Source: a virus. Taken from it: DNA of 40,162 nucleotides. This document shows, piece after piece, positions 5,783 to 40,162 of the stretch; within the stretch, counting starts at the first letter, position 1; each line of letters begins with the position of its first letter. The notes below the pieces were generated by a model, which saw only the letters and a program-made list of their open reading frames with translations, was not told the origin of the DNA and ran no database searches. Position numbers and translations under genes: made by a program. The stretch spans positions 1 to 40,162 of the IMG/VR virus record IMGVR_UViG_3300045988_095739. One strand, 5' to 3'.

Positions 5783-5813
5783 AATAAAAATAGCCGCTTA
5801 TGTGGCTACGTTA
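5783..5813 (-). terminator. Conserved hairpin/T-run element, copy A (GTAGCCACataaGCGGCTATTTTTATTTTGG) immediately upstream of the terS RBS
   Basis: See the finding on the AAAAATAGCCRC element. Confidence 0.45.
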
Positions 5814-5897
5814 CTAGTGCTTATTATAGCATTGCGGTATTAAGGTTATACTGTGCAGGACGTAAAACCCATAGGGTACATTTTTGGCGGTTATGTA

Positions 5898-6750: not shown

Positions 6751-8039
6751 TATAGTATCTCCTTATATTTTTTGATTGCGTTCTTACGCTTTTCCATTTC
6801 GTATTTTGTTTGTGAAAAACCCATATATTTACAGAAGTGGTCGTTCTTCATAATACAAATACACATGCGTTTATAGGTTGGTATTTCGCGAAATTCTGAA
6901 ATATCAATATCGTCAAGGTAATCCATGCGTACCGGCAGCTTGTCGGTTTTGTAGTTTGTCTTGTCGCCAACGGCAATGTTGATGCCGCGCTCTTTAAGCT
7001 TATCGACTGTGTCGCTTCCCAGCACACCACCGCGTTCTTTCCAGAACTTTATACTCGTATCCAATTTAGCCTGATAGCGAGCACGTACATCTGTCGGCAA
7101 CGTGCTAAGCAGGAACTTGCAATAGCTTTTCCAAGTGTGCCCCTTAGGTAGCGTAATCGACTTCCATCCCATAGCGGTCGTGCCGCCGTATATTCCAGTG
7201 AAGTTGACGCCGTTGACTCGCGATACGAGCTTGCCCCATGTATGAGGCTCAATTACACGATAGAGCTTCAGACTATCCTGCGCCGCATCGTTGAATGGGC
7301 TCGCCACACGCATTGCGTCAAGCGGTACACCAGCCTGATGGTAGAGGTCATAAAGTTTGTTGTACGAATAGCCAAATTTAGCGTTGGCCGTCCAAATATC
7401 TTCAGTAATCCAGTCGTAAATCGGATAAAAATTAAATACATCACTTGCCATCTGCTTCGAATACTGCCGACCCATGAATGTACGGTAATTTCTGTCAGAA
7501 TGAATAGCGCGCCATCGATTGAGACTTTCCTGCGTGCGAATACCGACCAGGCATGCTGTATGTCTCGCATTGCGCTGTTTATGTAACCACACGCCAAATT
7601 TATCTTGAAAAGCATAGTCCCACATATTGCCGTTCCAGAAATCGAATTGATGATTATCGATATTTATACTGTCTTTCGGCAATTCTCGCGTCCAAATACC
7701 ACGCTCCGTGACATTCCACGGCTTCCAGTGGTCTTGAAACATCGAGGTCGAGCACTGTGCCTTAATCGGCATGCAAATATGGTAGAACCTCACTCCGGTC
7801 GGTAAACTATGTTTTACTTCCTCTACGTAGTCGGTTGTCATCTGATATTGCGCCTCGTAGTCAATGTGCATAACTGATACATCAGTTAACCGTTCAGTTT
7901 TCTCTGCGTAATCCAACGTCAGGTTTAGTAGTACGCCGCTATCCTTGCCTCCACTGAATGACACGCAAATATTGTCGAAGTGGTCGAATATAAATCGTAA
8001 GCGCTTTTGAGACACCTCATAAACATTCATAACGTCCAT
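6750..8039 (-). CDS. PAPS reductase-like (PP-loop ATP pyrophosphatase) family protein with C-terminal extension (DUF3440-like)
   Basis: The N-terminal SFSGGKDS P-loop is typical of phosphoadenosine phosphosulfate reductase / PP-loop enzymes. 429 aa. Paired with the ParB-like gene as in IbrA/IbrB-like and Dnd-like modules. Confidence 0.8.
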   Translation of the reverse strand: MDVMNVYEVSQKRLRFIFDHFDNICVSFSGGKDSGVLLNLTLDYAEKTERLTDVSVMHIDYEAQYQMTTDYVEEVKHSLPTGVRFYHICMPIKAQCSTSMFQDHWKPWNVTERGIWTRELPKDSINIDNHQFDFWNGNMWDYAFQDKFGVWLHKQRNARHTACLVGIRTQESLNRWRAIHSDRNYRTFMGRQYSKQMASDVFNFYPIYDWITEDIWTANAKFGYSYNKLYDLYHQAGVPLDAMRVASPFNDAAQDSLKLYRVIEPHTWGKLVSRVNGVNFTGIYGGTTAMGWKSITLPKGHTWKSYCKFLLSTLPTDVRARYQAKLDTSIKFWKERGGVLGSDTVDKLKERGINIAVGDKTNYKTDKLPVRMDYLDDIDISEFREIPTYKRMCICIMKNDHFCKYMGFSQTKYEMEKRKNAIKKYKEIL

Positions 8040-9258
8040 CCTTTATGCATTTAATGATATTATCAAGCGTTCTCTCTTTTTTGTCGAGACTCGAACGAAT
8101 AATACGTTCCAGCCCGACGTCGACGAAGAAGTCGTAAATTTCCACATTTTTCGTCTGTCCGGTGCGGTAGATTCGGTGCATTGCCTGAATTTTGTCTTTA
8201 TAGTCGAATGTTTGCGTTAGAAATGCCATGCGGTGACAGAACTGCAGGTTCAAGCCAAACGCACCCGTCCCGTATGTGCATATCAGGACCTGGTACCTAC
8301 CGGCTTCGAAGTCGGCTAGATTAGCTTTATGCCGGCCGGAATATTCAGCCGCATTCGGTAGCATTTCCAGTAGGCGGTCAACTTCATCCAAATATTTCAC
8401 GAATATTATTAACTGCTCATCGCCAACAATATCCATCAGCTTGCGGTATTTGTCGTCGCACACTGTATAGGTATGCTGTAGTTTTTGGGTAATCTCCAAG
8501 AAATTGATAAACAATCCTCGCAGACTTTCGTCTTTCGCTAATCGGTAATTATCATGTTCCTGTTCGTTCATCTGACACTCGATGTCCGTAGTGCACATTT
8601 CGACTGGAATATCCAGGTCGGCATCAAAGATATATGGGCGAATCATCTCAATCAGTGCCGCTTCGTTAGCCGGCTTACTCCAACGTCGCCACGCCCGATA
8701 ACCATCTTTGTAATATTCCATGAAATAGTTGGCAAACTGCGCTTCGGTCATGTTGAGGATGTTTGGGCTAATGAAATTTATCTGTGGCAACAGGTCAAGA
8801 ATACTACGCGTTGTTGGTGTTCCATTAAGTATTAAACGAAAGTCGAAGTGATCGTAGTACCCGATTAGTCGTTTTGTTCGTTTAGCGTCTAAATTCTTAA
8901 TCTTTATACTCTCATCGACAATACAGAAACTGCGCGCACTATCAGCTAGGTTCAACATATCCATAAACTTCTCATCGGACATTGATATACTTTCGACAGA
9001 GAATGTCCGCACGTTTGGCATGAAATCGCACCATTTCGCCATTTCGCTTCGGTAATTCTGATCGTTAAGCAGGCTCGCTGGTGCGATCCAAATGATAACA
9101 TCGTTCTCGCGGTTGATCCTCTGACTAATCCAGTCCATGGCAACCTTAGTTTTGCCAGTGCCCATTTTCATGAACAGTGCACCGGCACGCAATCGCGACA
9201 ACTTATCAACAGCGCTCGCTTGGATCAAATCTAACCTCATCGATTGGTTGTTGATCAT
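8017..9258 (-). CDS. SNF2-family helicase (DEAD-like N-lobe plus helicase C domain)
   Basis: Motif I MGTGKT, motif II IVDESIKIKN, motif III LNGTPTT, and motif VI HRIYRTGQTKNVEIY. Confidence 0.85.
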   Translation of the reverse strand: MINNQSMRLDLIQASAVDKLSRLRAGALFMKMGTGKTKVAMDWISQRINRENDVIIWIAPASLLNDQNYRSEMAKWCDFMPNVRTFSVESISMSDEKFMDMLNLADSARSFCIVDESIKIKNLDAKRTKRLIGYYDHFDFRLILNGTPTTRSILDLLPQINFISPNILNMTEAQFANYFMEYYKDGYRAWRRWSKPANEAALIEMIRPYIFDADLDIPVEMCTTDIECQMNEQEHDNYRLAKDESLRGLFINFLEITQKLQHTYTVCDDKYRKLMDIVGDEQLIIFVKYLDEVDRLLEMLPNAAEYSGRHKANLADFEAGRYQVLICTYGTGAFGLNLQFCHRMAFLTQTFDYKDKIQAMHRIYRTGQTKNVEIYDFFVDVGLERIIRSSLDKKERTLDNIIKCIKDGRYECL

Positions 9259-9571
9259 ACACTACCTCTAATTTTGGTGGAATGTGGCGGTAGAAGTACT
9301 CTAGCAAACCTTTTTCGTCGACTAGATTACGCCGTACCGCCATCACCCGTTCATTTCTAATGCGATACCCACCTTTGGGCAACCAACACTCTTTCGACCC
9401 GATGAGGAATAAGGTTGCCCGTGGTGTTTCGTGGATAATGTCCTCGTATTTAACGTACGCCCAATAATCACTCGAAGTATTTGGCGAACTCATCGGCAGA
9501 CATTTCCCACTCATCAATTTTTTCAAATTTATTATACTTGCCCTTGCCGTTCTTAAACAGTTTGAATACAA
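9206..9571 (-). CDS. Hypothetical protein; N-terminal boundary uncertain (likely starts at ATG 9493 or is frameshift-continuous with the upstream 91-aa ORF)
   Basis: A protein-like open frame fills the gap between the 91-aa ORF and the SNF2 gene. The first ~34 codons overlap the better-looking 3' end of the 91-aa ORF in another frame. Confidence 0.4.
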   Translation of the reverse strand: MYSNCLRTARASIINLKKLMSGKCLPMSSPNTSSDYWAYVKYEDIIHETPRATLFLIGSKECWLPKGGYRIRNERVMAVRRNLVDEKGLLEYFYRHIPPKLEVVYDQQPIDEVRFDPSERC

Positions 9572-12769: not shown

Positions 12770-12955
12770 TTATTTTGATTGTTCTTTCGCGGTAAGCTTG
12801 CCGAGATGCGCCCAGGCACTCGTCGAATGGTTGAATAACTTGCTTTCTTTCAGCCATCCGCCGGCGAAAGCCTTGCGGCATACGTACCACTTACCGTCTT
12901 TGTTTTTCTTAATGGTGCGCACGGTCGTAAGCGACCTACGAAATACACTCTTCAT
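12770..12955 (-). CDS. Hypothetical small basic protein (61 aa)
   Basis: Open frame directly downstream of the 321-aa gene. Confidence 0.4.
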   Translation of the reverse strand: MKSVFRRSLTTVRTIKKNKDGKWYVCRKAFAGGWLKESKLFNHSTSAWAHLGKLTAKEQSK

Positions 12956-13901
12956 TGCTTTTTATCTCCAAGGGCTTTTTGCTTTTTACCAAGTAATGGT
13001 TGCCCGTCTCACTACTCAGATAGTTATCATTTACGATATCTAGGAACTTATTCGCATCTTTCGTGTCGAACAAAATGATATTGCCTTTGTCGTCTGTCAT
13101 TAACTCAATGGCCATATTGTCGGCGATATCGAGGACAGTCTCCTGGCTCGGCAGACTCTCAGTGTTAACTTCGAGCAGGCGCTTTAGTGTCGACTTGCTT
13201 TCGCGCGCCATTACGGCGAAATCATTAAACATATTCGGTAGTATCAAGCTATACCGATTACTAATTGCCTCGCCTATTTCATCAGACGTGCGAATATCCT
13301 GAATGTTATAGTCGAATGCTTTCGCGAACTTTGACTGGTCGAATATGAATATTTCGCCGCCAACTATCAGCATTTGATTATCCATCGGCATATTAACTGT
13401 CACGTCAGCTAAGTGAGACTCTGCATTGCCACCATCAAAATCCCACACATGACCCACAGAAATCGACGCAGACGGTGGTAAATACTTCGCGACGTAGAAC
13501 GATACGTTTTTATCGTCCGGATGCGTGTAGTGCGCTACAATTCCTTTCATGCGCTTGAATTCATGGTTGTGCGTCGAAAATTCAAAGATACCGGCACGAT
13601 CCTCTTCAATTTGCCGAACCAGATATCTCACGCGATCGACATCGCTGAGAGGCAGATACGGTAATTGCTTAGAGTCTCGTTTATCGTAATCAACCAGGTT
13701 GACGACATTCACGCCAATCGCCGCATCAGTCTGTATCTCGTTGATTATTCCATACAGGAACATCATCGGTAGTTCAATCTCTAATGCGGGCGATACGCGT
13801 AAACTATATAGCACAGCGTTCTTATTGAAGAGAAACAGTTCGCACTGCAGCCCTTTTTTCATGCTGTCCGCTTGGTTCGCCCATAAGAATATATCTGTCA
13901 T
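12936..13901 (-). CDS. Hypothetical protein (321 aa), accessory/possible defence or anti-defence
   Basis: Long ORF with no recognisable catalytic motif. It is translationally coupled to a 40-aa single-TM peptide gene upstream. Confidence 0.6.
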   Translation of the reverse strand: MTDIFLWANQADSMKKGLQCELFLFNKNAVLYSLRVSPALEIELPMMFLYGIINEIQTDAAIGVNVVNLVDYDKRDSKQLPYLPLSDVDRVRYLVRQIEEDRAGIFEFSTHNHEFKRMKGIVAHYTHPDDKNVSFYVAKYLPPSASISVGHVWDFDGGNAESHLADVTVNMPMDNQMLIVGGEIFIFDQSKFAKAFDYNIQDIRTSDEIGEAISNRYSLILPNMFNDFAVMARESKSTLKRLLEVNTESLPSQETVLDIADNMAIELMTDDKGNIILFDTKDANKFLDIVNDNYLSSETGNHYLVKSKKPLEIKSNEECIS

Positions 13902-14661: not shown

Positions 14662-14897
14662 CGTCTCTCCTTGTCATATTCATCGACTCGGTATACATGA
14701 TCCGGTAAACGTCCGTTCTGTTGCAGAAACCTCTCAATTTCCTCGTCATTTATCGTCACGATGGTTGTCGTTTCGACGGTAAATATCTTGTATCTACCGT
14801 TGTTGAAACGTTGACGCTTCTCAGTGTCGATAATGTATTTTCGCGAGCCTTTTTGGATTATCTTTTGGTCGTTCATATTCCTCCTTTCTCCTAGCAA
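14658..14897 (-). CDS. Hypothetical protein (79 aa)
   Basis: ORF overlapping the stop of the nuclease-FtsK gene by a few nt. Confidence 0.5.
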   Translation of the reverse strand: MLGERRNMNDQKIIQKGSRKYIIDTEKRQRFNNGRYKIFTVETTTIVTINDEEIERFLQQNGRLPDHVYRVDEYDKERR

Positions 14898-16927
14898 TAC
14901 AATCCCTGCAATCGCTCCAGATTCTTCGAGCGCGGATTTTGGTACAACATGTCGCCATAGCCGGTTAATTGCTCTGCGCCATCCTCGTCCAGAATGATTC
15001 GGCTATTCATCGAGTTCGTTACGCTGAACGCAATCTTTGTCGGGAAGTTGGCTTTAATTAAGCCAGTCACGACCTCACGGCTTGGACGCTGTGTTGCGAT
15101 AATTAAGTGAATACCAACAGCACGCGCTTTCTGGGCGAGCCGTACGATTGATTCTTCGCAGCTTGGCGGCATAGTATCTTCTATCGTCCGCTTCAATGCT
15201 TCCTTGGTGATTTTCACCGTCAAAGTGCCAGTTTTGCTGTCTCCCAGCAGTTCCGTCAGCTCCTGGTTGAATACCTTGATATCAAGCGTTTTAATGCTCG
15301 GCGACGTATCGGTCATGATGAGGTCGGCGAACTCGTCGATAATCGCAACGATACGCGGCATATCATCGCCTTTGTAATCGTCGATTTTACGAACACCTGC
15401 GTCGCGCAACTTTGCGTAACGCGCATTCATCGTGGCAACTAGATCGTCAAGAGCATACGCAGCTGTTTCAGCTTCAGTTACAACCGGCCGCAGTAGATGC
15501 TTGTCGCTTTCGTAACCGGCAAATTCTACCTGTTTTGGGTCGATAAGCAACAGTTTTAGCTTGTCGCTATCCAATTGCTTTGTGAGCACTTGCAGTATCA
15601 CGTTTAGCATGACCGATTTACCCGAGCCAGTTTGTCCGGCCACCAGCAAATGAGGCATCTCCGTAACGTCACCGTAGTGAACTTCGCCAAAGATATCTTC
15701 GCCGATCGGAATACTCATCGTGCCTGGTTTCAGGTGTCTTTCCTCCAGGTCGATTTTCCGTCGTTCTGGATTTGGCACTTCGATGCCAACCAGGTTCGTG
15801 CCAGGGATTGGCGCGATGATTCGTACAGACTCGGCTTTGAGTGCAATAGCAATGTCATCGTGTTTTTTCGCGATAGCATTCATTGCGACACCACGGTTTG
15901 GTCGCATTGTGTAGCGAATAACGGACGCCCCTTTGTATGTTTCGCCCATGATTCCGCCATAGCCAAACTCTGTGAACTTCCGCAGTATCAACTCTTCAGG
16001 AGTACCGCTATCTTCACCAACATCGACTGTCACATTGCGCGGTGCGAACTTCTCAACAGCGTTTACCTTGCGACGGATTTTCGTCGCATCAAAACCCTCT
16101 TCCATGTTCGAAACCAGTTGCATTGACTCAATACCGTTGATGTAATCGCTTGGGTTCGGGAAGAACTTTGCGTTGTCGTCGTTCACGTATGAGAACACGT
16201 TCGTGATGATTTTCTGCGCAACCGGCGCAAACTCCAGTAGCGATTGCCTGTCGTACTCAAAACCTCGCACCTGCGGCGAACCATCGCGGTTCTTGCTTTT
16301 CTTCACTTCTAGGAACTCGACAGATTCTACTTGCTTATCATAATCAGCTTCAGCGAGCACTAGGTAAATGTAGCCCTGTAGCAGATACTTGTAGTTCTCA
16401 ACATACTCAGGATCAAGCGGGTCGTTTGTTGGCGACGAGTAGGCGAACACTGTTTTGAAGTCTTTCACCTTGATCGTGTTATCCGAACTGCCTGCAGCGA
16501 TGATGTCAGATACCCCTACCATCGGTACGCCGTTTACTGCGTGCTCCATTCGCTTCTCAGTCGCCAGCACATCCATCGGACGCGCCTCTTCAAACCAAAC
16601 GTTTACTGTCGCAGTGTATTCCTCAATCATCTTTTCGCGACTGCCAGTCTTGCCGTAATCAATCTCGTAATCGCTCGTATCATTGATAGCCTCTAATCCA
16701 GCAGCAACTGCGTCGTTGATATTACCGCCATCTTCGCTGTAGTACGTTTCCATCGCCTTGTGGAACGCTGTGCCGACGACCATAGCCGGCGACTTCGCAT
16801 TATCGAACACTTTCGCGATATAACGCTTCTGAAACTCAACCTGGTTGCGTAGAAACGTAATGATTGCCGAGTAGCTTAAATGGTCAACCCTCGCCATGTC
16901 GCATCTCCTCGTCCGGATCGGCATCAA
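14891..16927 (-). CDS. Fusion of an N-terminal PD-(D/E)xK (RecB/Cas4/YqaJ-like) nuclease and a C-terminal FtsK/SpoIIIE-family ATPase (678 aa)
   Basis: N-terminal nuclease motifs GVSDIIAAG, IKVKDFKT and QGYIYL. C-terminal Walker A GQTGSGKS, Walker B IIDEFADL, and the FtsK-type IIATQRPS motif. Confidence 0.8.
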   Translation of the reverse strand: MMPIRTRRCDMARVDHLSYSAIITFLRNQVEFQKRYIAKVFDNAKSPAMVVGTAFHKAMETYYSEDGGNINDAVAAGLEAINDTSDYEIDYGKTGSREKMIEEYTATVNVWFEEARPMDVLATEKRMEHAVNGVPMVGVSDIIAAGSSDNTIKVKDFKTVFAYSSPTNDPLDPEYVENYKYLLQGYIYLVLAEADYDKQVESVEFLEVKKSKNRDGSPQVRGFEYDRQSLLEFAPVAQKIITNVFSYVNDDNAKFFPNPSDYINGIESMQLVSNMEEGFDATKIRRKVNAVEKFAPRNVTVDVGEDSGTPEELILRKFTEFGYGGIMGETYKGASVIRYTMRPNRGVAMNAIAKKHDDIAIALKAESVRIIAPIPGTNLVGIEVPNPERRKIDLEERHLKPGTMSIPIGEDIFGEVHYGDVTEMPHLLVAGQTGSGKSVMLNVILQVLTKQLDSDKLKLLLIDPKQVEFAGYESDKHLLRPVVTEAETAAYALDDLVATMNARYAKLRDAGVRKIDDYKGDDMPRIVAIIDEFADLIMTDTSPSIKTLDIKVFNQELTELLGDSKTGTLTVKITKEALKRTIEDTMPPSCEESIVRLAQKARAVGIHLIIATQRPSREVVTGLIKANFPTKIAFSVTNSMNSRIILDEDGAEQLTGYGDMLYQNPRSKNLERLQGLYC

Positions 16928-17600
16928 TCACCTTGTCGTTAGCGATTTCCTCTTCGATGTACAAGCCACTGATATCAAATCCTTGGCGGATTGCGTTTGC
17001 TTCAGCACACTTGGTCAACATCATGCGAGGTCTACTGCGCCACATGCTATTCAGATCTCCGTTTTTTTTTCGACGAGCAAACTCGTCGAAATATGCGGTA
17101 TAGCGCGTGATTTCTACCGGAGAGACCCCCGCCGAGATTGCACTGACTCCGCTACTGAAGATACCGAAGACCGGTACAGTCGCGCTGATGATTTGTGACG
17201 GATCGTCCTTACTGAACTCTAACTCAGCAGCACCAGTATGCGTATAGCGCGGTGTCGTCGATTTGCGTGCCATCTTTCGTAAGCCATGGATTGACACAAT
17301 CGGCGTTAATTCCTCGCGTTGCCGTTCCTTATTCCATACGTACGTTGCGTAGATTTCCTTTTTGAACGGGTTTAGTCCGTATTGATTAGAAATCGCTAGG
17401 AACAATTTCAAGTCTTCCATCGGTCGCGCTTCGCCAGTCTTCGTTAAGCCGAGCATGCTGCGGTGCAATGTCGCAACCATTTTTTCTTTGCTAATTTTCG
17501 TGTTTTCTGAAAACATACCAGACGCGAGCGGCACAACGTCTCGATACATCGTCAACTTTTTCTTTGCGACGGCCACTTTCGCGTCTTTCTCTGTTGTCAT
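16884..17600 (-). CDS. recT: RecT-family single-strand annealing protein
   Basis: KLFLAISNQYGLNPFKKEIYATYV is a RecT/Red-beta-like core. It lies upstream of a nuclease gene, as in RecET/YqaJK modules. Confidence 0.75.
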   Translation of the reverse strand: MTTEKDAKVAVAKKKLTMYRDVVPLASGMFSENTKISKEKMVATLHRSMLGLTKTGEARPMEDLKLFLAISNQYGLNPFKKEIYATYVWNKERQREELTPIVSIHGLRKMARKSTTPRYTHTGAAELEFSKDDPSQIISATVPVFGIFSSGVSAISAGVSPVEITRYTAYFDEFARRKKNGDLNSMWRSRPRMMLTKCAEANAIRQGFDISGLYIEEEIANDKVIDADPDEEMRHGEG

Positions 17601-18993: not shown

Positions 18994-19274
18994 ATCAAAT
19001 TCTTAACTATGCCCGAGTCTGCTGATAAACTTTACCATGATTCTCTACGAAGTGTTCGTGTTTCCATGAAAGCGCTCTACCGCTGCAAATCGCCACTAAG
19101 CAGGGCGATGTGCGAGGCGCACATCATAGACCGTTGGTAAGGTGAGTTTTCAATGTGCGTTTGTTCTTTTGAACTGTCTTTATGTTAGCAAATTTTGACG
19201 CTAATGTCAAGTTAGCGTAAACGCCTATGTTTATATCTGGTGGGAGGGTGGTTTATCCACACCTCCCAAAAAAA

Positions 19275-20135
19275 TTATACGCCCGTTGGTGTTTTGAATT
19301 TGTCGTACATCTCTACCAGTCTGCAATCATCTAGCCCGTGCAGATATTTTTCGGTAGTAGCCATGCTTGAATGTCTCATTAACCTCTGTGCTACGTCTAT
19401 CGGTGCTCTATTGACTTGCAGCTCTGTACCAAACGAATGACGGAGCGAGTGCGGATAAAAGCCGTCCAGTCCCGCCTTGTCAAAAGCTCTTTTCATTCGA
19501 TACCTCAGCTCGTCTACGCTGTACGGTCTACCGTCGTTGTATTTGGGCGACGGCCATAGGTAGTCGTTGATTTTTTGCGAGTCAATCCAGCAATCGAGTT
19601 TATCGCGCGTTTCTTGCGACATAAACAGCCGTCCAGCCTTACGACCTTTTCCGATAATGTTCATTTCTCGATCGCTAACATTGCTTAGTCGCAGATTTCG
19701 GAGCTCACTGATTCGCAGGCCAGAATCAAAAGCTAACGATATCAACAGCCACGAAAGCTCATCGGCGTAGTTCTTTGCACGGCCTATCTCCTTGCGAGTA
19801 AAAAACTTGCGACGTGGAGGATCCTCTTCTAGCCGATAGACTCGATTCAGGTTGATAGGGACACTATACCCCTCCTCTTTGAGCCATCGACAAAGACTGA
19901 TGACATGGTTTACTCTGGTATTTACAGTTCTAGCTGCAACCGTCCCAGAGCACAACAGCGACTTCTGCCAGGACTTGAACACTTCGCTAGTGAACTCCCG
20001 CATGTCTTCGATTGCGACCTGTCTAGCAAACTGATTTAATACCGCCCGCTTACTAGACAACGTTTGCCTTGTCATGTTTCGGTTGTATTTGCAGAAATCC
20101 AAATAAGCTTCTATCTGCGAATGAATTGTTTCCAT
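19275..20135 (-). CDS. int: Tyrosine recombinase / phage integrase (XerC/D-like)
   Basis: N-terminal SAM-like domain. Catalytic R...HSLRHSFGT...RLMRHSSMATTEKYLH with the Tyr nucleophile. Confidence 0.9.
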   Translation of the reverse strand: METIHSQIEAYLDFCKYNRNMTRQTLSSKRAVLNQFARQVAIEDMREFTSEVFKSWQKSLLCSGTVAARTVNTRVNHVISLCRWLKEEGYSVPINLNRVYRLEEDPPRRKFFTRKEIGRAKNYADELSWLLISLAFDSGLRISELRNLRLSNVSDREMNIIGKGRKAGRLFMSQETRDKLDCWIDSQKINDYLWPSPKYNDGRPYSVDELRYRMKRAFDKAGLDGFYPHSLRHSFGTELQVNRAPIDVAQRLMRHSSMATTEKYLHGLDDCRLVEMYDKFKTPTGV

Positions 20136-20326
20136 TGCGGTGAATTCTTTCTGCCCACCCGCTAAGTTGACATAATGTTGTTTTGTTGGCTAATTTTTAT
20201 GTAAAAATGCTAAAGCGAGCAAACACCTATTACTATCTTTATTCTTATATTAATATATAGCGACGTCAGATTTGGGCTATGGTTCCGAGGTGGGCATAGC
20301 CCACTATTGGGCTATGAAAAATGGGC

Positions 20327-20423
20327 TTTCCACAGGGTTTTCCACGGAAAATGGTGGGTTTATGCTCAGTTTGTCCACAGAAATACTAAAGTTTTCCACA
20401 GGACATTTACTATAGCAAACCAT
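20327..20423. promoter_or_regulatory. Cluster of four direct DnaA-box-like 9-mers (cTTTCCACA, TTTTCCACG, TTGTCCACA, TTTTCCACA)
   Basis: Read directly in 20327-20423. Preceded by GGGCTATG direct repeats and the GGGCATAGCCC palindrome at 20272-20320. A consensus DnaA box TTATCCACA also lies inside a hairpin at 19250-19258. Confidence 0.5.
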
Positions 20424-20479
20424 TTTTGCAATAAAAAATCCAGCACATTGTGCTGGGTAATTGCCGCGGCGCGAGGGAC

Positions 20480-20788
20480 TTATTGTTTGTAATAATCGAC
20501 CAAGACACGGAACATAACGGTAGGTTTTGCCCCACCGGTAATAGACCGTGTCTCTATCCAACCTTTCTTCTCCAGTATCTCCCGTGAGTATTGCTGCTGG
20601 TGGCGATTAAGCCCGATATCGTCTTTAATCTCTCTGGTATTCTTGTTAAACCAGCCGTCAGCATCCTGCTCATATTTGGCATAATACAACAATTGCGCGT
20701 AGTAGTACGCCGCTGTTACATTCGCCTTTAATAAGCACACAATCTCGGGAGAAACCGGCACGCGTTGCGCGTCTCGTCTCTTACCCAT
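20480..20788 (-). CDS. Small winged-helix DNA-binding protein (replication-initiator/repressor-like N-terminal domain)
   Basis: 102 aa. The pattern AAYYYAQLLYYAKYEQDADGWFNKNTREIKDDIGLNRHQQQYSREILEKKGWIE resembles the winged-helix N-domains of phage/plasmid replisome organisers. It sits between int and the accessory genes. Confidence 0.5.
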   Translation of the reverse strand: MGKRRDAQRVPVSPEIVCLLKANVTAAYYYAQLLYYAKYEQDADGWFNKNTREIKDDIGLNRHQQQYSREILEKKGWIETRSITGGAKPTVMFRVLVDYYKQ

Positions 20789-20990
20789 CGTATACCCTCG
20801 CTTTAGCTTAGAGCGGAGTTGTATACATAAAGAACACAGCCCCGTCCAAAAATATGGTTGAGGCTGTATATCACTCTCGGAAGATTACTTTTATAATAGC
20901 ATGATAGTTTCGTCATGACAACTGCTTGGCAATGGTATTATCGAATCACGGAATATAAACGCCGGATCGATTGCGGAGTTTCTGCCTAAT

Positions 20991-21311
20991 ATGATTCAGT
21001 CGCAAGCAGAGGGCTTGAAAATCGTCACTGGCTGGGGACAATTCCGCGGCAGCGGCGGCAATAGTGCTACAGTAGAGGTGCAATTTCCGCATGAGTTCAA
21101 GAATGAAGTTGTGATGGCGATGGTGTCATACAATGGCTTTCATACTGGTACGAAAGCAGAGAAACTTAGTGATTTCACAAACAAAATCGGCACAGGAGTA
21201 GTAGCAGAGTTTTTGGTGCGCGATAAAAAGTCTGGCGTAATTTTACTATCAACGTCTGGCATATTCGGCGGTGCGTGGCATGGTGTGTCATGGATTGTTA
21301 TTGGTCATTAA
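20991..21311 (+). CDS. Hypothetical protein (106 aa); one of only two + strand genes, moron-like
   Basis: It runs opposite to the rest of the genome and is followed by a strong hairpin terminator at 21384-21441. Confidence 0.5.
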   Translation: MIQSQAEGLKIVTGWGQFRGSGGNSATVEVQFPHEFKNEVVMAMVSYNGFHTGTKAEKLSDFTNKIGTGVVAEFLVRDKKSGVILLSTSGIFGGAWHGVSWIVIGH

Positions 21312-21383
21312 ACTCATATTTAGCAGTGAGCGCCGACTAAGTGCTTGCTAGCATACCTGCTTATGTTTATAATAATCAATGAA

Positions 21384-21441
21384 ACGTAAGTCGTCTGGTG
21401 GGTTTATAAGCATTTTCCCCACCAGACGGGCTACGTTTTTT
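21384..21441 (+). terminator. Intrinsic terminator (11-bp perfect stem CGTCTGGTGGG/CCCACCAGACG extendable to ~18 bp, followed by T8)
   Basis: Read directly from the sequence. Confidence 0.65.
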
Positions 21442-21451
21442 TTGATTACTC

Positions 21452-21560
21452 AACCTATACCGACACCGCCGCAACCTGCGGCGCAGTAAAATGGATTAAG
21501 ACGTGGGGCATGAGTAATACTGGCTGGACTGTCTTGTACGGCGATACGGGGTGGCGAGAT
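21452..21560. repeat. Left copy of a 109-bp inverted repeat (core 78 bp with one mismatch) shared with the tail-fibre gene
   Basis: 21483-21560 against the reverse complement of 22602-22679 shows 77/78 identity. The flanking 31 bp have 6 mismatches. Confidence 0.8.
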
Positions 21561-21920
21561 ATAAGTACATTGTTGATAAACGGCTGGAAGAACAAAGCGA
21601 ACCATATGACAATGCGGCGCATAAATTGCAAGGTCATTTTGAGATTTCCGTTTGTAGGTTTAGACGGCAGTGCGGCGACGAAGAGCGTATTCCTGACACT
21701 ACCAGATGGATTTAAGTATAGAAACGGCTCAAATTATGGCGCTATCGGCACAATCGTTGTCGGCAACGGCTTTGAATTAGGAACGACTGCTAATTTGCAG
21801 ATTGTGTCTAAGGACTTTGGCTCGCTTTCAACAAAACCATCGAGCCTTGATATGACCGGAGAATTGTCATGGACAACAGACGATGCTTATCCGAGCATAC
21901 TGCCAGGAACTGCAGTATAA
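21510..21920 (+). CDS. Promoterless alternative tail-fibre C-terminal (receptor-binding) cassette; its frame is open from 21386 with no start codon or RBS before the conserved junction
   Basis: The first 17 aa ([17 protein letters not shown]), plus the upstream in-frame [19 protein letters not shown], are near-identical to residues inside the tail-fibre gene on the opposite strand. The downstream sequence diverges completely. Confidence 0.6.
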   Translation: MSNTGWTVLYGDTGWRDISTLLINGWKNKANHMTMRRINCKVILRFPFVGLDGSAATKSVFLTLPDGFKYRNGSNYGAIGTIVVGNGFELGTTANLQIVSKDFGSLSTKPSSLDMTGELSWTTDDAYPSILPGTAV

Positions 21921-21954
21921 TGCCACGCTCACTACGTTTGTTTATATATAATTA

Positions 21955-22130
21955 TTAATCTTGAATCCTATGAACAAGCTCCTCTTTATCCCCGCCAAGC
22001 TCTTCGTATTTCTTAGCAAGGCTATCTACCTGCTCTGGAATCTCTTTAAGGTTATTGCGGCGGTTAATCTCGTCCATAATAAGTTGCAATTGTTCTTGTA
22101 GCTGTTCTTCAGTTAAAGTTTGTAGTCCAT
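21955..22130 (-). CDS. Small coiled-coil ORF downstream of the tail fibre, interrupted by a -1 frame change after codon 5 (possible fibre assembly/chaperone gene, pseudogene, or programmed shift)
   Basis: Strong RBS GAAAGGAGctac-ATG, then MDYKL and a stop. The -1 frame then remains open for 55 codons (LTEEQLQEQLQLIMDEINRRNNLKEIPEQVDSLAKKYEELGGDKEELVHRIQD). Confidence 0.3.
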
Positions 22131-22211
22131 GTAGCTCCTTTCGTTAGTTTTCCTTGAAATTTCCAATTTTTACAAGTTATCGTAAGATTTTAGGGTTTCA
22201 CGGTTAATTAC

Positions 22212-23570
22212 TCACCCCCCCCCAGGCAGTGTCGTTGGCCAGTCGCTCTCAGTGACGTACGACATGTTGAACGAACACGCGTCGCCTTTCGTCCAGTCGC
22301 CAGTGCCGGGGATGCCGCGGACAGCAAAATCGTGAGCAGCTCGATACGAGTAGACAGAGCCGATATCGTCGCTGCTTCTGGTATTGATGATTACGAGTCC
22401 TTGAGCTCTACCCCAACCGGCATACCTGAACCCTAACGGCATGTCGTCTTTACCAGGAAATAGCCGTTTAATCACATAACGCCCGCCAGTTGGATTATCG
22501 CCTACCTTTAATCCGCTTGAACGCAAATACACCGTCCTACCGATACGCCGCAGCTGGATATTGCTTGTGCTATCCCAGAACGTGTCAAGCAGCGATTTAA
22601 CATCTCGCCACCCCGTATCGCCGTACAAGACAGTCCAGCCAGTATTACTCATGCCCCACATCTTAATCCATTTTACTGCACCGCATGTGACGGCTGTGTC
22701 GGTGTAGGTTGAGCCTGGAGAAGCTGAGACGACGCCGTTGGGCTGTCCAGTACCGTATAAATGTGCAACTTCGCCAATCTTCACGTACGAGAGGTCAGAG
22801 GCGACCCGAATGACATTCTTACTGGTCTTGTTGTTCCAAATCAAGAACTCGCCGGCTGAGTTTAGTCCCCACGATATATCTTTGCCAGCTCTGATTTGCC
22901 GATAGCCGAGGACAGGGTTATTTGAATTGACGATAACCTCACTGGTGAACGTATCGCCAGCTTTGTTGGCTTTGCCATCCAAATCTGTCTCTATCTTCTT
23001 TCTAAGAGCTGTGTCTTGGTTGTCCACGTAGAATTTGTCGGCTTTTAAGGTCAAGTCTGGTTTGTTAGTTAATTGGTTGTAGTCGGTAGTGCCAGGTTCA
23101 CCGCGCTCCCCTTTGGGGCCTCTCAACGCCTCTAATTGTGCCTGCGTAAAATCGCTATATTTGAACGCGTCGCCCTTTTCTCCTTTGTTGCCTTTGAGCT
23201 CTGCTTTTGAGACAAGATTATGCCAGGTGCTGTCATCTTTATAGTGCCACTGCACCCAGTCGCCTGATAGGCGGCATTCTATTTCACGTCCATCAGTACC
23301 AGGGTTGCCTTTCGGACCGATGAGGCTAGCGAGGCTTACAAGGTCATGCCAAACAGCTTCGTCTGTGTAGCGCCACTGTATTGCAGTAGCAGAGACTTGG
23401 AACTGGACTTCGCGCCCGTCAGAACCGCGCTCCCCGCGTTCCCCGCGGTCGCCTTTCGGACCGACATCCCCCTTAGATCCTTTGTCTCCTTTATTATATA
23501 CGCCTATCTCAAACGTAACTTGCGGTAATAATCCATCCTTAGCCATTTCCGCCCCTCCTAATATCTGCAC
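22212..23570 (-). CDS. Collagen-like tail fibre protein (452 aa) with Gly-X-Y tracts interspersed with three W-rich repeats and a C-terminal receptor-binding region
   Basis: [25 protein letters not shown] and related G-X-Y runs. Repeated (Q/V)WxY(T/K)D..(V/T)WH.LVS motifs. The C-terminus carries the cassette junction motif. Confidence 0.8.
22602..22710. repeat. Right copy of the 109-bp inverted repeat, inside the tail-fibre coding sequence
   Basis: As above. Confidence 0.8.
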
Positions 23571-23916
23571 TTACCATTACTTGTATAAATTTATTTCCGC
23601 CTGGGAATGTAAACACATTCCCGTCTTTCGTACGTAGCTCGAACTCGCCCTGTAGAATAACAAACGATTCATCACCGACTTTGACATCGCGCGTATCGTC
23701 CGCTTCAAATCTGAGTTGATATTTCACACTGTCGCTGCTGCGATTGATGATGTCGGCGTCTGTCAGATGCTTTGATATGAGTGCCGCGCTATCATTCAGA
23801 TCGTCGTCCGGCGATGGTTTTGCCATGAAATAAACATCCATGCCATCCTCATACGCGGCAATCGGTATCTGCAGAAAATGCTTGGCGGTATCGCCGCGTT
23901 TGAGTTTCAATATCAT
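23539..23916 (-). CDS. Hypothetical protein (125 aa), probably fibre-associated
   Basis: ORF between the lysis genes and the fibre gene. Overlaps the fibre start by 32 nt. Confidence 0.45.
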
Positions 23917-24104
23917 TGTTCTACTCCTAATGCGATAGCTTCTAGCGCAAGCTTACCGGCATTCATTTTGAAATGCCTATCTTCCAGCTCTAGCTGTACC
24001 TCGCGCCAGTATTCCTGCATTTCCTTGGCGTGCTGCCACTGAGATACGAGGGATTGTTCCTCGTCCGGTTTCGGTACGCTATCAAATGCTAGCTGCTCGT
24101 ACAT
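23913..24104 (-). CDS. Hypothetical small acidic protein (63 aa)
   Basis: Tightly packed between the lysin and the 125-aa gene. Confidence 0.4.
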   Translation of the reverse strand: MYEQLAFDSVPKPDEEQSLVSQWQHAKEMQEYWREVQLELEDRHFKMNAGKLALEAIALGVEQ

Positions 24105-25504
24105 TACTGTTTCTTCCTCCCGCTCTTATAAAGCCCAAACATAACAAGCATGAATGTTCCAGCGATAATCAATGCACTGCCAAGGGCGTCGGTCTGTGCT
24201 GCTGTGAACGGAATGCTAAAGGCAATGACAAGCTTGGATACAACCATACCAAGTAGAATGAGCAGGTCGCCGGTGATGTATACGCCGACCTTGACGCCCT
24301 GCGGTATAGACTTCACGATATTCTGTGCGTCCTCGCTGCCAGCTACAGCCTCAGCAATGTCTGACGTTGTAGACTGTAGGCTTTCTAGTTGTTCTTTTGT
24401 AAATCCTGCTGCTGGTGCTGGTTTTTCTGTCATTTTCTTATCCTCCTGCGTTAATGACTGGTTTTTTGATGATTGACCCGCGTTATTCGCCTTTTTAGCT
24501 TCTTCCTCGGCACGTTTTTTGGCTTCCTCAGCCTCTCTAGCTTTATTTTCGGCTTCCTGTCTAGCTTTCGCCTCAGCCTCTGCCTGGCGCGCTTTTTCGG
24601 CTGCTTCGCGGCGTGCTTCGGCTTCCTGAGCGCGTCGTTCTGCTTCGGCTTGCTTGCCTGATATCAGCTGGGTATGTTCATTTGAGTTCAGCAGGTCTTG
24701 TCGCACCTGGTCTAGCGTCCAGCCTTTAGCTACTTGCGACTTGTAGTGTGCTATACCGCCATCGTCTGCGTCGCGCTCTAAGATGTCATGGTAAGCTTGT
24801 TTAATTGCTGAGGTTAGTTCAGCGTCTTTCTGTGCGGCTGCTTGCGCGGCTGCCTGCGCTTTGTTAGCTTCTAACTGCTTGCGTTCATTACTATTCATAA
24901 GGTCGCTGCGGATTTGGTCGATAGTCCAGCCCTCCGCTGCTTGCTGGCGGTAGTGATTGATACCGCCCTCATCGGCTTCGCGCTCTAGTACTTCGCGGTA
25001 CACCTGTCTTATTTGGTCGTCTGATACACTTGGGCGATTACCTACGTAATTTCGCATACGATAAACTCGTACGCCGCCCCGACGCCAGTTGGCATGGAAC
25101 GGGTCTATTCTCGATAAGTAGACGGTGTTGCCGGCTACGACGCGGGCACTAGAACCTGGCAAGGCAACGTTCTGTTCGAAGACGCGGTCTCCAGAAAGCA
25201 ACACGCCGATGTGACCATACCCGCCGCCATCCTGCGGCCAGACGACAAGGTCGCCTTGCTGGCGTTGGTTAGGCGGTACTTCATAAGCTAGTCCTTGGTT
25301 TACCAGGGTGTTGCCGAAGTCTTTTGCATTGCCTCTAGCTGCACCTGGGTTTGGTAATTGACACATCTCTGCGCCGAACCACTTAACCAGGCTTACGCAT
25401 TGACCTGTGAGGTCTCCGTCGTCCATCGTGCCATTACTGCTGCCTGGGAAGAATATTCCTAAGCGTTTTGCTGCGTATTCGTCTGCGTTTCTGTTGGCTG
25501 CCAT
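24104..25504 (-). CDS. Cell-wall hydrolase: N-terminal CHAP domain, two ~45-aa internal repeats, Ala/Glu/Arg/Lys coiled coil, and a C-terminal two-helix transmembrane region
   Basis: CHAP motifs GQCVSLVKWF (Cys) and YGHIGV (His). Tandem repeats DDQIRQVYREVLEREADEGGINHYRQQAAEGWTIDQIRSDLMNSNE and AIKQAYHDILERDADDGGIAHYKSQVAKGWTLDQVRQDLLNSNE. C-terminal hydrophobic helices VGVYITGDLLILLGMVV and LGSALIIAGTFMLVMFGL. Confidence 0.8.
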   Translation of the reverse strand: MAANRNADEYAAKRLGIFFPGSSNGTMDDGDLTGQCVSLVKWFGAEMCQLPNPGAARGNAKDFGNTLVNQGLAYEVPPNQRQQGDLVVWPQDGGGYGHIGVLLSGDRVFEQNVALPGSSARVVAGNTVYLSRIDPFHANWRRGGVRVYRMRNYVGNRPSVSDDQIRQVYREVLEREADEGGINHYRQQAAEGWTIDQIRSDLMNSNERKQLEANKAQAAAQAAAQKDAELTSAIKQAYHDILERDADDGGIAHYKSQVAKGWTLDQVRQDLLNSNEHTQLISGKQAEAERRAQEAEARREAAEKARQAEAEAKARQEAENKAREAEEAKKRAEEEAKKANNAGQSSKNQSLTQEDKKMTEKPAPAAGFTKEQLESLQSTTSDIAEAVAGSEDAQNIVKSIPQGVKVGVYITGDLLILLGMVVSKLVIAFSIPFTAAQTDALGSALIIAGTFMLVMFGLYKSGRKKQ

Positions 25505-25520
25505 GTCTCTTTCCTCTCTA

Positions 25521-25886
25521 TTACTTTACGAATTTCCAGTGTTCAATGAAGTTGAAAATAAATCCAATGATAGTGATTGCTCCGGTGACAACCGCGCCGG
25601 CAACACTCATTTCCTTGCGCGTGACGAGTTTTTCAAGAGCTTTGTCGTTCGTTGTCTGATAGTTGGTAACTTGTGCCACCAGGCGTTCCAAATCCTCTTT
25701 GTCCGCTTTGCTCATCGTTGCCAGCTGCACGGCTTCGGTGAGTTGTTGAATACTGTTGTTTGTTGTCTTGAACTGCGCGTCGACAAGCTGTTCAAACCCT
25801 GCCATTTTTATACCCAGCTCGCGAACTGTCCTTGGTGTATCATTGTCGCCCACTTGATTTCTTTCCGTCATTATGTTTATTCCCAT
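25521..25886 (-). CDS. XhlA-like holin-associated membrane protein (coiled coil plus C-terminal TM)
   Basis: N-terminal coiled coil and C-terminal TM helix AGAVVTGAITIIGFIFNFI. Position immediately upstream of the lysin. Confidence 0.5.
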   Translation of the reverse strand: MGINIMTERNQVGDNDTPRTVRELGIKMAGFEQLVDAQFKTTNNSIQQLTEAVQLATMSKADKEDLERLVAQVTNYQTTNDKALEKLVTRKEMSVAGAVVTGAITIIGFIFNFIEHWKFVK

Positions 25887-25916
25887 ATAAAAATAGCCGC
25901 ATTTCTGCGACTACGT
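25883..25916 (-). terminator. Conserved hairpin/T-run element, copy C (GTAGTCGCAgaaaTGCGGCTATTTTTATATGG) immediately upstream of the XhlA-like gene
   Basis: See the finding on the AAAAATAGCCRC element. Confidence 0.45.
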
Positions 25917-25960
25917 TATGTTGTTATTGTACCACGATTTACCGGTCGGCAATAGCCTGG

Positions 25961-26878
25961 CTACTTCACGTATCTTAGTGTCAGTACAAACTCGCTCTTC
26001 CCCCATGTAAATGAGCCAGCAAAGCGAACTTGCGTCTTTGTCACGAGCGATAAGCCTAGACGGTGGTTGGGTTCAATATGCGGAATCACACATTTTAGCC
26101 CTGAGCTTCCTATCACACCGCCCATTACAATCGATCCAGTGAAAGATAATACTACAAAAGCGTCTGTCATGCCGACAATCCCATGGTCGAAGTAGACGTC
26201 TTGATTAGCATTGATGAATATGCTGCCTTTAATAGTTTTCTCATACACCGTCCGACCATCTATATACTTGACACCAGTATCGACCTCATCAGTAGAGTAG
26301 TCGCCTCGCGCAGTAGCACTCATATTCCGTGATTCGATAATACCATTGCCAATTTGGCTGCTATTACCAATCAGCACTCGTGATCGCAAGTCGGTGATAT
26401 TGCTCTTTGTCAGCGACGACGCCATCTGCGGTACGGTAACGCGCGCTAATATAATATACGGATTTCCTGCACCGATTTTCGATTGAATTGTTGCAGTTGT
26501 CGGATCTGTCGGCGTAGCCGATGGCGTGCCGGCGACAGACGCAAGCTTCAGTACACCATTCGTATTATCAATAACAGTCGTCGTTGGCGTGACTTTACTA
26601 TCGATGTACGCAACAATTAGATCATGACGCTCGTTTGATGGCGACGCTGCAGTAATTGCGACTTCCTCGTCAGCGTCAATTTGAATAAGCCGCGAGAAGT
26701 TCTGTCCCGTCTTGATTTGTCCCGTGCCAGGCTTCACTAGCACTTTCAACCCTGTCGTGTCGGTTGGTTCGACATTCAACCCTGCAGCTACGTCGCCATC
26801 GAATGCTGCCGATAAGAATGCCGATAGCGCTGCGGCACTGTGCCTACCGCCCTGCATGTTGAATACTTTTCTGCTCAT
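25961..26878 (-). CDS. Tail fibre / receptor-binding-like protein (305 aa)
   Basis: Ser/Thr/Gly-rich beta-type sequence in the distal tail module. Confidence 0.5.
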   Translation of the reverse strand: MSRKVFNMQGGRHSAAALSAFLSAAFDGDVAAGLNVEPTDTTGLKVLVKPGTGQIKTGQNFSRLIQIDADEEVAITAASPSNERHDLIVAYIDSKVTPTTTVIDNTNGVLKLASVAGTPSATPTDPTTATIQSKIGAGNPYIILARVTVPQMASSLTKSNITDLRSRVLIGNSSQIGNGIIESRNMSATARGDYSTDEVDTGVKYIDGRTVYEKTIKGSIFINANQDVYFDHGIVGMTDAFVVLSFTGSIVMGGVIGSSGLKCVIPHIEPNHRLGLSLVTKTQVRFAGSFTWGKSEFVLTLRYVK

Positions 26879-40148: not shown

Positions 40149-40162
40149 GATAGCGGTGGTCG

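Follow-up and report, generated by a model that had tools for sequence, protein, structure and literature searches.

Nested inverted repeats carrying alternative C-termini for two receptor-binding proteins in a temperate phage of oral Saccharibacteria

The stretch of DNA analysed here, called the window below, is the IMG/VR virus record IMGVR_UViG_3300045988_095739 from position 1 to position 40,162 (40,162 nucleotides). It belongs to a temperate siphovirus of an oral Saccharibacteria (TM7) bacterium and is a complete circular phage genome of ~40.1 kb, because its ends repeat each other (1-22 is identical to 40141-40162 in the repeat search). At the end of its late region lie a collagen-like tail-fibre gene, fibre B, and the gene of a receptor-binding protein (RBP), RBP-A, and each shares an inverted repeat (IR) with a second C-terminal cassette in the opposite orientation. 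All annotated genes are on the minus strand, save these two plus-strand cassettes. An initial annotation, made from the sequence alone, had proposed an invertible host-range switch in fibre B; a second, outer switch, bounded by the 31-nt repeat IR-A, was missed by it.

The inner repeat and fibre B

Fibre B is encoded by an open reading frame (ORF) of 452 amino acids (22212-23570, minus strand), for which gene callers begin at the ATG at 23546 to give 444 amino acids. Its constant, collagen-like N-terminal part (22714-23570) was assigned from the ORF and from domain and PHROG searches; the Pfam, PHROGs and NCBIfam scans used throughout covered most ORFs of at least 90 amino acids. This part is followed by the right arm of repeat IR-B (22602-22713), which encodes 37 residues, and then by cassette B (22212-22601, minus strand), the C-terminus expressed in the present orientation. 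The left arm (21449-21560) opens a plus-strand frame that runs through cassette B' (21561-21920), an alternative fibre B C-terminus that is unexpressed in the present orientation and is recognized as such by its frame, its PHROG matches and natural fusions. The repeat in the fibre gene is thus real, and it extends over 112 nt in the repeat search (109 bp in the initial annotation), with 105 of 112 positions complementary (94%) and the arms 1041 nt apart. Alignment reproduced the reported 77/78 identity over the 78 nt beside the variable cassettes and the more diverged remainder, in which 6 mismatches fall in the 34 nt on the constant side. In 40 kb of sequence, chance cannot produce so long a repeat.

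Past IR-B, the fibre B frame continues to a stop at 22212 and the plus-strand frame continues through WRDISTLLINGWKNK to a stop at 21920. These stops and the divergence of the two frames agree with the earlier description, yet the divergence is not complete: the C-terminal parts of B and B' are homologous (39% identity overall; BLASTP 2e-30), end alike (WPTTLPG and YPSILPG) and have PHROG matches in common, at the C-terminal ends of those families. The frame of B' is open from ~21390, which corrects the figure of 21386. It had been said to have no start codon, ribosome-binding site or promoter. An in-frame ATG is present at 21510, corresponding to the internal Met of the fibre, and gene callers use it to call a 136-amino-acid ORF; no usable Shine-Dalgarno sequence was seen by eye before this ATG. 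The claim of no promoter is not strictly shown, because a sigma-70-like match (TTGCTA-17-TATAAT, 21345-21373) lies just upstream. Inversion of the inner segment (21561-22601) would swap the last ~120-130 residues of fibre B, exchanging B for B' or the reverse.

The inner segment also contains a small ORF (21955-22130, minus strand), a homologue of phrog_7100, a family without an assigned function. This ORF is frameshifted by the loss of one A (A4 to A3) in the window and its identical twin L006, and only there; it is an intact 58-amino-acid gene in L001 (about 9285-9460), L005, L009, L011, L092, L093 and L096 (contigs and genomes are designated L, and proteins P). It had been suggested to stand where a U/U'-like fibre chaperone would be expected. 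However, it is present as a single copy in one orientation within the segment, and L001 and L008, in which there is no inversion, also carry it after the fibre gene. We conclude from these properties that it is not a cassette-specific chaperone of the U/U' type.

The outer repeat and receptor-binding protein A

The outer repeat, IR-A, is a perfect 31-nt inverted repeat (20926-20956 and 26322-26352) with 5365 nt between its arms. Its right arm lies within the 305-amino-acid ORF of RBP-A (25961-26878, minus strand) and encodes IGNGIIESRN(M/I). The constant N-terminal part of RBP-A (26353-26878) has PHROG matches to minor tail and virion structural proteins, a member of its cluster is named 'Receptor Binding Protein' in NCBI nr, and its gene follows the Dit and minor tail genes. 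Downstream of the right arm is cassette A (25961-26321, minus strand), the RBP-A C-terminus expressed in the present orientation. The left arm is in frame with cassette A' (20957-21311, plus strand), an alternative RBP-A C-terminus that is unexpressed as the segment now lies and that matches Pfam PF21882 (Gp53-like_C, a tail-fibre C-terminal domain) at 1e-4, just under the gathering score. IR-A is invariant in 20 of 20 arms from 13 loci, has sharp edges, and is flanked by sequences in reciprocal combinations. An exact search with the 31-mer found one contig in IMG/VR, which was already known, and none among the JGI metagenome contigs.

Inversion of the outer segment (20957-26321) would swap the last ~120 residues of RBP-A between A and A'. 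This segment contains six genes in all; besides cassette A, it takes in the inner switch as a whole, the gene of fibre B and four passengers. The passenger genes (23539-25886, all on the minus strand) encode a membrane protein of 116/121 amino acids (25521-25886), a CHAP/DUF4214 lysin with a C-terminal membrane anchor (24104-25504), and proteins of 63 (23913-24104) and 125 amino acids (23539-23916). The two nested switches therefore give four states: A/B, A/B', A'/B and A'/B'. We also considered expression of the unexpressed cassettes as independent proteins from ATGs at 20991 and 21510. No ribosome-binding site was seen for either and fused forms exist, so that this is left as a minor possibility. 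Just outside the segment, a promoter-like sequence found in a promoter scan (TTGTCA-17-TATTAT, 20893-20921, minus strand) abuts IR-A, and a PHROG search identified an O-like winged-helix gene of 102 amino acids (20480-20788, minus strand).

Natural isomers in public assemblies

Both predicted fusion proteins were built and then used as queries against public assemblies. The inner fusion matched P0001 at 94% identity over its full length. The contig that encodes P0001, L005, aligns with the window from 24848 to 22602 on the minus strand and then from 21450 to 22673 on the plus strand; its inner segment is flipped, and the small ORF and cassette B are antisense to the fibre gene. The complete prophages L096 and L097 show the same inner flip to B', so that cassette B is unexpressed on the opposite strand in all three. 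The outer fusion query matched P0121 and P0226 (303 amino acids, 96% identity), which occur on many contigs, including L007, L092, L093, L094 and L095. In L007, the sequence corresponding to 36870-26322 (minus strand) is joined to 20926-21507 (plus strand) exactly at the IR-A 31-mer. L092, a genome of 39 kb, is in the excised (attP) form; its whole 20926-26352 block is inverted and both IR-A junctions are visible, and L093 carries the outer flip as a prophage; cassette A is unexpressed on the other strand, and the passenger genes are inverted together, in both of these genomes. Both segments are flipped in L094, which is 100.000% identical to L092 over 1348 + 385 nt except for the orientation of the inner segment. 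Thus, all four combinations exist in public metagenomes. Related genomes, where the initial annotation had recommended a search, do contain the inverted inner arrangement (L005, L096, L097 and L094), and its prediction that the plus-strand cassette is an alternative tip expressed upon inversion of the 1041-bp segment is borne out by P0001 of L005, by L096 and L097, and by the comparison of L094 with L092.

Mis-assembly is judged an unlikely source of these isomers on two grounds. Sequencing reads, and the k-mers used at the end of an assembly, are typically longer than 31 nt. In addition, L005, L094 and L097 have contig names that start with k141, which we take as k = 141, and this exceeds the 112-128 nt of IR-B. 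Assemblies and gene callers split such genomes at the repeats, and unexpressed cassettes are called as small 'hypothetical proteins'. In the present case they appear as ORFs of 106 and 136 amino acids on dozens of contigs.

Maintenance of the cassettes in relatives

Switch states do not follow phylogeny. In a comparison of 7.1 kb of tail genes, L093 (A') differs from the window (A) by 2.9% and L096 (B') differs from L009 (B) by 1.75%, and A' genomes occur in both clades. The cassettes are under purifying selection, also in the unexpressed position. Ratios of nonsynonymous to synonymous substitution rates (dN/dS) were 0.06-0.16 for A' and 0.09-0.20 for B'. Among three B'-type cassettes, all in the unexpressed position, dN/dS was 0.27-0.57. 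In L001 and L008, neither of which has an inverted cassette, B' serves natively as the expressed tip of the fibre, and A'-type tips are native in the distant homologues P0125 and P0129. B'-type tips are found in addition on a wholly different N-terminal part in P0032 and P0034 (295 amino acids, ~92% identity in the tip), which are encoded on other Caudoviricetes contigs; the join in these proteins falls at the conserved ...GWRD stretch that makes up IR-B.

Across 7% DNA divergence the architecture is conserved, and a lineage only ~50% identical in RBP-A protein has a compact form of it. This compact lineage (L108, L109, L110 and L114) has a one-level A switch with a segment of ~700 nt bounded by an invariant 19-nt inverted repeat, CAATATTGATTTTACGACT (8585-8603 and 9285-9303 in L110, for example). 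Both isomers were found twice in it, with two cassette pairs (L110 versus L114 and L108 versus L109), and no recombinase was found within 10 kb of the switch in L114. Some copies have degenerated or depart from the common arrangement. L009 (11628-11900) has a ~200-bp deletion in B' that removed most of the left IR-B arm (its inner part), and fibre B should therefore be locked in one state; its outer switch is intact. The RBP-A of L002 has a third tip, and only ~13 nt of IR-A are in common. Directly after fibre B, L010 (11369-12388) has a different integrase (phrog_95) and unrelated genes, with no A', B', O-like gene or Xer-like integrase; its tail genes are 100% identical to those of L011. The block of A', B', O-like and integrase genes behaves as one exchangeable module.

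We put at roughly 90% the probability that the end of the late region of this temperate Saccharibacteria siphovirus holds a working two-level DNA inversion switch. A contrary explanation is that no switch is maintained, so that the plus-strand cassettes are leftovers of horizontal tip exchange and the isomers are rare accidents or products of mis-assembly. Signs of decay would fit it, namely the B' deletion in L009, the third tip and ~13 nt of IR-A in L002, and the frameshift of the small ORF in the window, as would the exchange of fibre tips between unrelated phages at the same joint in P0032 and P0034. We nevertheless regard this explanation as very improbable. The 100% identical pair L094 and L092 differs by the flip only, the states are polyphyletic, cassettes that lie unexpressed have dN/dS values under 1, and the architecture persists both across 7% DNA divergence and in the compact lineage with both isomers. 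Moreover, IR-A is too short to confuse an assembler, and flipped genomes occur both as prophages and as the 39-kb attP-form genome.

Transcription of the invertible segments

The outer segment contains a candidate promoter and leader for a second late unit (25887-25934, minus strand), proposed from sequence motifs. The candidate leader comprises an extended -10 element, TGGTACAAT (25926-25934), a hairpin (25893-25914), a T-run and the motif GCGGCTATTTTTATATGGGA (25881-25900). The motif GCGGCTATTTTTATWTKGGA occurs twice in the genome on the minus strand (5778-5797 and 25881-25900), where 0.01 occurrences are expected by chance. One copy precedes the small terminase gene (layout 5778-5830) and the other precedes the membrane-protein/lysin unit (layout 25881-25934), and in front of each copy lie an extended -10 element and then a small hairpin with its T-run. 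This arrangement suggests that the outer segment may carry a self-contained late transcription unit that moves with it, and an outer flip would then probably be tolerated. The concern that an outer flip silences the lysin and fibre B genes is less worrying given this internal promoter/leader motif and the flipped attP-form genome L092; the excised form of L092 is consistent with viability of the flipped state.

The promoter-like sequence at 21345-21373 (plus strand), mentioned above, is followed by a hairpin (21382-21438) and a T8 run, a layout similar to that of the two leaders, and this element (21345-21446) is conserved in L002, L007 and L009. With the outer segment flipped, transcription of the main late operon would probably end at this hairpin and T8 run (21382-21446), which follow A'. 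A terminator placed directly after a promoter is reminiscent of lambda-style late antitermination.

Integrase and other recombination genes

The only site-specific recombinase found in the genome is a tyrosine recombinase of 286 amino acids (19275-20135, minus strand; Pfam Phage_integrase, 2.5e-25; PDB XerA, 2e-14), encoded 0.8 kb from IR-A. It has core-binding and catalytic domains and no arm-binding domain, and its NCBIfam matches are to XerA/XerC-like proteins, under the family cut-offs. It had been described simply as a tyrosine integrase; the integrase role is established by the prophage junctions, and we amend the description to an armless, Xer-like recombinase of Rin-like make-up. Junctions adjoin the integrase gene in L009, L093 and L096, where the 3' half of a tRNA-Thr gene, and then host genes, come after the recombinase gene. 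Comparison of attP (the window), attR (L009, L093 and L096) and attL (L099, L100, L103 and L104) located the attP core, GGTAGAGCGC (19072-19081, minus strand), which is common to the D-arm of the host tRNA-Thr(GGT). The Xer-like recombinase is thus demonstrably the prophage integrase and integrates into tRNA-Thr. Many Saccharibacteria phages and prophages have a homologue of it as their ordinary integrase. The idea that it is a dedicated invertase, which the lack of a prophage in isolate genomes had raised, was rejected as its sole role on the strength of the junctions in L009, L093 and L096 and the attL sites in L099 and L100. Integration splits the host tRNA-Thr(GGT) gene in the D-arm, and ARAGORN found no tRNA in L009 (attR hybrid). 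A complete tRNA-Thr(GGT) gene is present in the phage at 18918-18993, ~80 nt from the attP core, and with the host copy disrupted the phage therefore seems to bring a replacement gene.

The candidate homologous-recombination pair of the phage consists of RecT (16884-17600, minus strand) and a PD-(D/E)XK nuclease fused to an FtsK/SpoIIIE-type ATPase (14891-16927, minus strand), whose gene overlaps that of RecT. A nuclease-FtsK fusion is an unusual partner for RecT. RecT together with a PD-(D/E)XK nuclease is encoded in L008 and L114 as well, as in all the related lineages that were examined. As the initial annotation had stated, no invertase of the Gin/Hin/Cin type is encoded: scans of the ORFs examined gave no resolvase-domain match in Pfam, PHROGs or NCBIfam, and the best tblastn match to Hin and Gin sequences, inside the SNF2 helicase gene, had an E value of 0.025. 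Nor was a reverse transcriptase of a diversity-generating retroelement found among the annotated ORFs, and the variation consists of discrete cassettes rather than adenine-directed changes.

How the segments may be exchanged

The repeats themselves bear on how the segments flip. No motif common to IR-A, IR-B and attP exceeded shuffled controls, and no dyad symmetry was seen by eye in IR-A. The arms of IR-B are more alike within a genome than between genomes, with lineage-specific synonymous variants common to both arms. The extent of arm-to-arm identity varies: the window has it over the inner 78 nt and L096 over the outer ~44 nt (with a diverged inner part), it reaches a perfect 128 nt in L092 and ~122 nt in L093, and it is shifted 16 nt into the cassettes in L002. 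By our reading of the alignment, the only stretch identical between the arms in all compared genomes is ~12 nt long, GCAGTAAARTGG. Because the identity tracts vary by genome, they point to gene conversion with variable end points and not to a fixed crossover site. In phage lambda, a segment between inverted repeats was flipped 20-100 times better by RecT/RecE, Erf/Exo and Red pairs than by RecA, and the shortest segments cited as sufficient for pairing are 23-27 bp (Red-beta) and 31-34 bp (RecA) (PMC3945230). At 112-128 nt, IR-B exceeds these minima, and the 31-nt IR-A is at the limit.

These observations lead us to favour homology-dependent inversion between the repeat arms, with no dedicated invertase, to which we give about an even chance. 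It is favoured because no motif is shared by the repeats, the IR-B tracts are variable, no invertase was found, RecT and a nuclease are present, and the lambda system offers a precedent. The likely agents are the RecT and PD-(D/E)XK nuclease of the phage, acting while it replicates, the RecA of the host, acting in the lysogen, or both, and the integrase would do integration only. A bolder version, which we advance tentatively and hold somewhat less probable than the general mechanism, is that this is a programmed four-state host-recognition switch that works with no invertase at all, its repeats being kept just long enough for RecT/exonuclease or RecA. The repeats, their in-frame joins, the four isomers, the att site of the integrase and the concerted evolution of IR-B are demonstrated; which enzyme acts, how often the segments switch, whether the promoter works and how host range changes are matters of inference.

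Several observations weigh against homology-dependent inversion or the wider account in which it is set. IR-A is only 31 nt long, with the invariance and sharp edges described above, and the compact lineage flips precisely at its invariant 19-nt repeat, which is below the cited pairing minima; an invariant repeat of this kind looks more like a recombinase site. The Xer-like recombinase gene, 0.8 kb from the outermost repeat, is always in one block with A' and B'. Gene conversion between the arms would be expected in any recombination-proficient cell, even if a site-specific enzyme flipped the segments. The internal promoter is a sequence match only, and promoter-like sites in the region are not above those in shuffled sequence. 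In addition, the isomers stem from different assemblies and are no direct demonstration of switching within one population.

Two site-specific mechanisms are retained as rivals. In one, the armless integrase doubles as the invertase, like Rci on the R64 shufflon or Rin as proposed in bifidophages. Its domain make-up, core-binding and catalytic with no arm-binding domain, is that of Rin and XerD (PMC6109161), and for this reason such a role is kept under consideration. The integrase is also the only site-specific recombinase found and is always linked to A' and B'; relatives with another early or integration region have neither the cassettes nor this integrase (L010, with phrog_95 instead), L008 has no cassettes and no integrase within the 10 kb read, and the invariant 31-nt IR-A has the size of a simple tyrosine-recombinase site. 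We nonetheless consider this role unlikely, since the integrase demonstrably acts at the attP core and neither repeat resembles attP or the other repeat. Known shufflons use one crossover sequence throughout, IR-A has no dyad symmetry visible by eye, the IR-B identity tracts vary among genomes, homologues of the enzyme are the ordinary integrase in many Saccharibacteria phages, and the compact-lineage switch has no recombinase within 10 kb. In the other mechanism, the segments are flipped in trans by an invertase encoded by the host or by another resident element. Short, invariant repeats with precise joins (31 nt, and 19 nt in the compact lineage) agree with such an enzyme, and Mavrich et al. 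likewise proposed supply in trans for a bifidophage locus that has an 8-bp repeat but lacks a recombinase gene beside it (PMC6109161). The stretch TTATCGAATCAC of IR-A matches a gix/hix half-site at 8 of 12 positions, which is a weak lead only. However, to act on three unrelated repeats (IR-A, IR-B and the 19-mer), either the enzyme would have to be very relaxed or more than one specificity would be required, and the variable IR-B tracts do not suggest a fixed site. We judge a trans-acting enzyme to be about as improbable as a second role for the integrase, and retain homology-dependent inversion as the preferred mechanism.

Phage genome and host

The structural genes include those for the small terminase (GP3_package), large terminase, Mu gpT-type capsid protein, tail tube, tape measure and Dit, and the recombination genes are those for RecT, the PD-(D/E)XK nuclease fused to the FtsK-like ATPase and the single tyrosine recombinase. 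The host assignment comes from the prophage flanks, where a GH57 gene matched 596 loci that by title are nearly all from Saccharibacteria or related Patescibacteria (top identity 73%). Oral origin is suggested by the names of the records, one of which contains 'human.oral.metagenome', and by the ZHAN15, VALL22 and HMP sets, which we take to be oral samples. Megablast of 19000-24000 against the INPHARED phages gave no match, tblastn of fibre B gave only distant tail-fibre matches in phages of Gram-positive bacteria and in one TM7 phage, and a search of 185,579 species genomes with the integrase yielded no relative.

Other features of the genome were noted in passing. A 1184-amino-acid ORF (123-3677, minus strand) combines a Mu-type portal with 2',5' RNA ligase-like, MuF and ADP-ribosyltransferase exoenzyme domains. 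A ParB_N-domain protein followed by a PAPS-reductase/DUF3440 protein (6250-8039, minus strand) suggests DNA modification rather than partition. The early region encodes a 321-amino-acid protein with a domain like that of KwaB, a component of the Kiwa defence system (12936-13901, minus strand). Four TTTCCAC(A/G)G-like direct repeats between the O-like winged-helix and integrase genes (20326-20406) are possibly origin iterons. Near the capsid genes, a perfect 102-nt tandem repeat (37300-37541; two full copies and 38 nt) lies in an ORF at 37178-37546.

Comparison with known systems

Switching of phage receptor-binding proteins by inversion is textbook knowledge for Mu and P1, and one version that uses a tyrosine recombinase is described in bifidophages. 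The present locus resembles Mu G/Gin, P1 C/Cin and p15B Min in that a constant N-terminus is joined in frame, through inverted repeats, to C-terminal cassettes of opposite orientation, with alternative host specificities as the expected outcome. The initial annotation had assigned the locus to the Mu G and P1 C architecture, and the constant part with alternative cassettes is indeed present. Membership of that family does not follow, as no serine recombinase, convincing gix/hix-like site or cassette-specific chaperone pair was found. The segment ends do not carry 26-bp gix/hix-type sites of one consensus (IR-A and IR-B are unrelated). Moreover, the two unrelated repeat pairs are nested, the outer segment holds a putative whole transcription unit with a second fibre gene in it, and the host is a member of the Saccharibacteria rather than an enterobacterium.

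Shufflon-type systems such as Min, Rin and R64 reuse one crossover sequence, and the sfx sites of R64 are ~31 bp long. No single short crossover sequence occurs at every cassette boundary of the phage locus. The R64 shufflon is similar in that inversions, some of them nested, change the C-terminus of the adhesin PilV, with a tyrosine recombinase gene beside the cassettes. It differs in being a plasmid pilus locus with an inversion-only enzyme, Rci, and sfx sites that have a common core and right arm, whereas no site is shared here. The Rin shufflon of Bifidobacterium prophages is likewise found in siphoviruses of a Gram-positive-type host, exchanges an RBP C-terminus by inversion, has an armless XerD-like tyrosine recombinase beside its cassettes, and was recognized from prophage and virion isomers (Mavrich et al., 2018, PMC6109161). 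However, Rin is a dedicated invertase, distinct from the lambda-type integrase, and each of its cassettes is preceded by one 11-bp rix site (PMC6109161); in the window, the only tyrosine recombinase is the integrase, and the 31- and 112-nt repeats are unrelated. The likeness to Mu G, P1 C and Rin is therefore one of architecture, not of family membership. The nearest described recombinase-free case is the locus of bifidophages 689b-1 and Bb423phi2, noted in passing by Mavrich et al., in which the 3' end of a tail gene and a small gene are inverted with no flanking recombinase (PMC6109161). It differs in its 8-bp repeat, ~500-bp segment, single level and lack of an assigned function, and is known from two genomes (PMC6109161).

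Two further systems are alike in mechanism or layout. In the lambda PL inversion assay, a phage RecT/exonuclease-type pair flips a segment bounded by inverted repeats as the phage grows lytically, and does so even when the arms diverge (De Paepe et al., 2014, PMC3945230). That assay uses an engineered 800-bp repeat and no natural coding switch, compared with repeats of 31 and 112-128 nt here. The BREX pglX locus has nested pairs of inverted repeats and several coding variants (Milman et al., 2023, PMC9881135), and tail-fibre genes are among the families enriched for programmed inversions (PMC9881135). Nesting at pglX replaces the middle part of one gene and produces non-functional intermediates (PMC9881135), whereas the two levels of the present switch control two proteins and every state is predicted to be functional.

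We found no description of inversion switches in Saccharibacteria phages in literature searches. Few phage-host systems of oral Saccharibacteria are experimentally tractable, and the four cassettes point to receptor-recognition domains. From the inversion switches of Mu, P1 and the bifidophages, the locus differs in its host and in that nested segments toggle two different receptor-binding proteins. Because it has no dedicated invertase and its repeats are mutually unrelated, the locus is a test case for homologous recombination as programmed phase variation; if that mechanism is true, phase variation of receptor-binding proteins would here rest, in nature and under selection, on general homologous recombination, and this in a virus that infects ultrasmall bacteria of the candidate phyla radiation (CPR).

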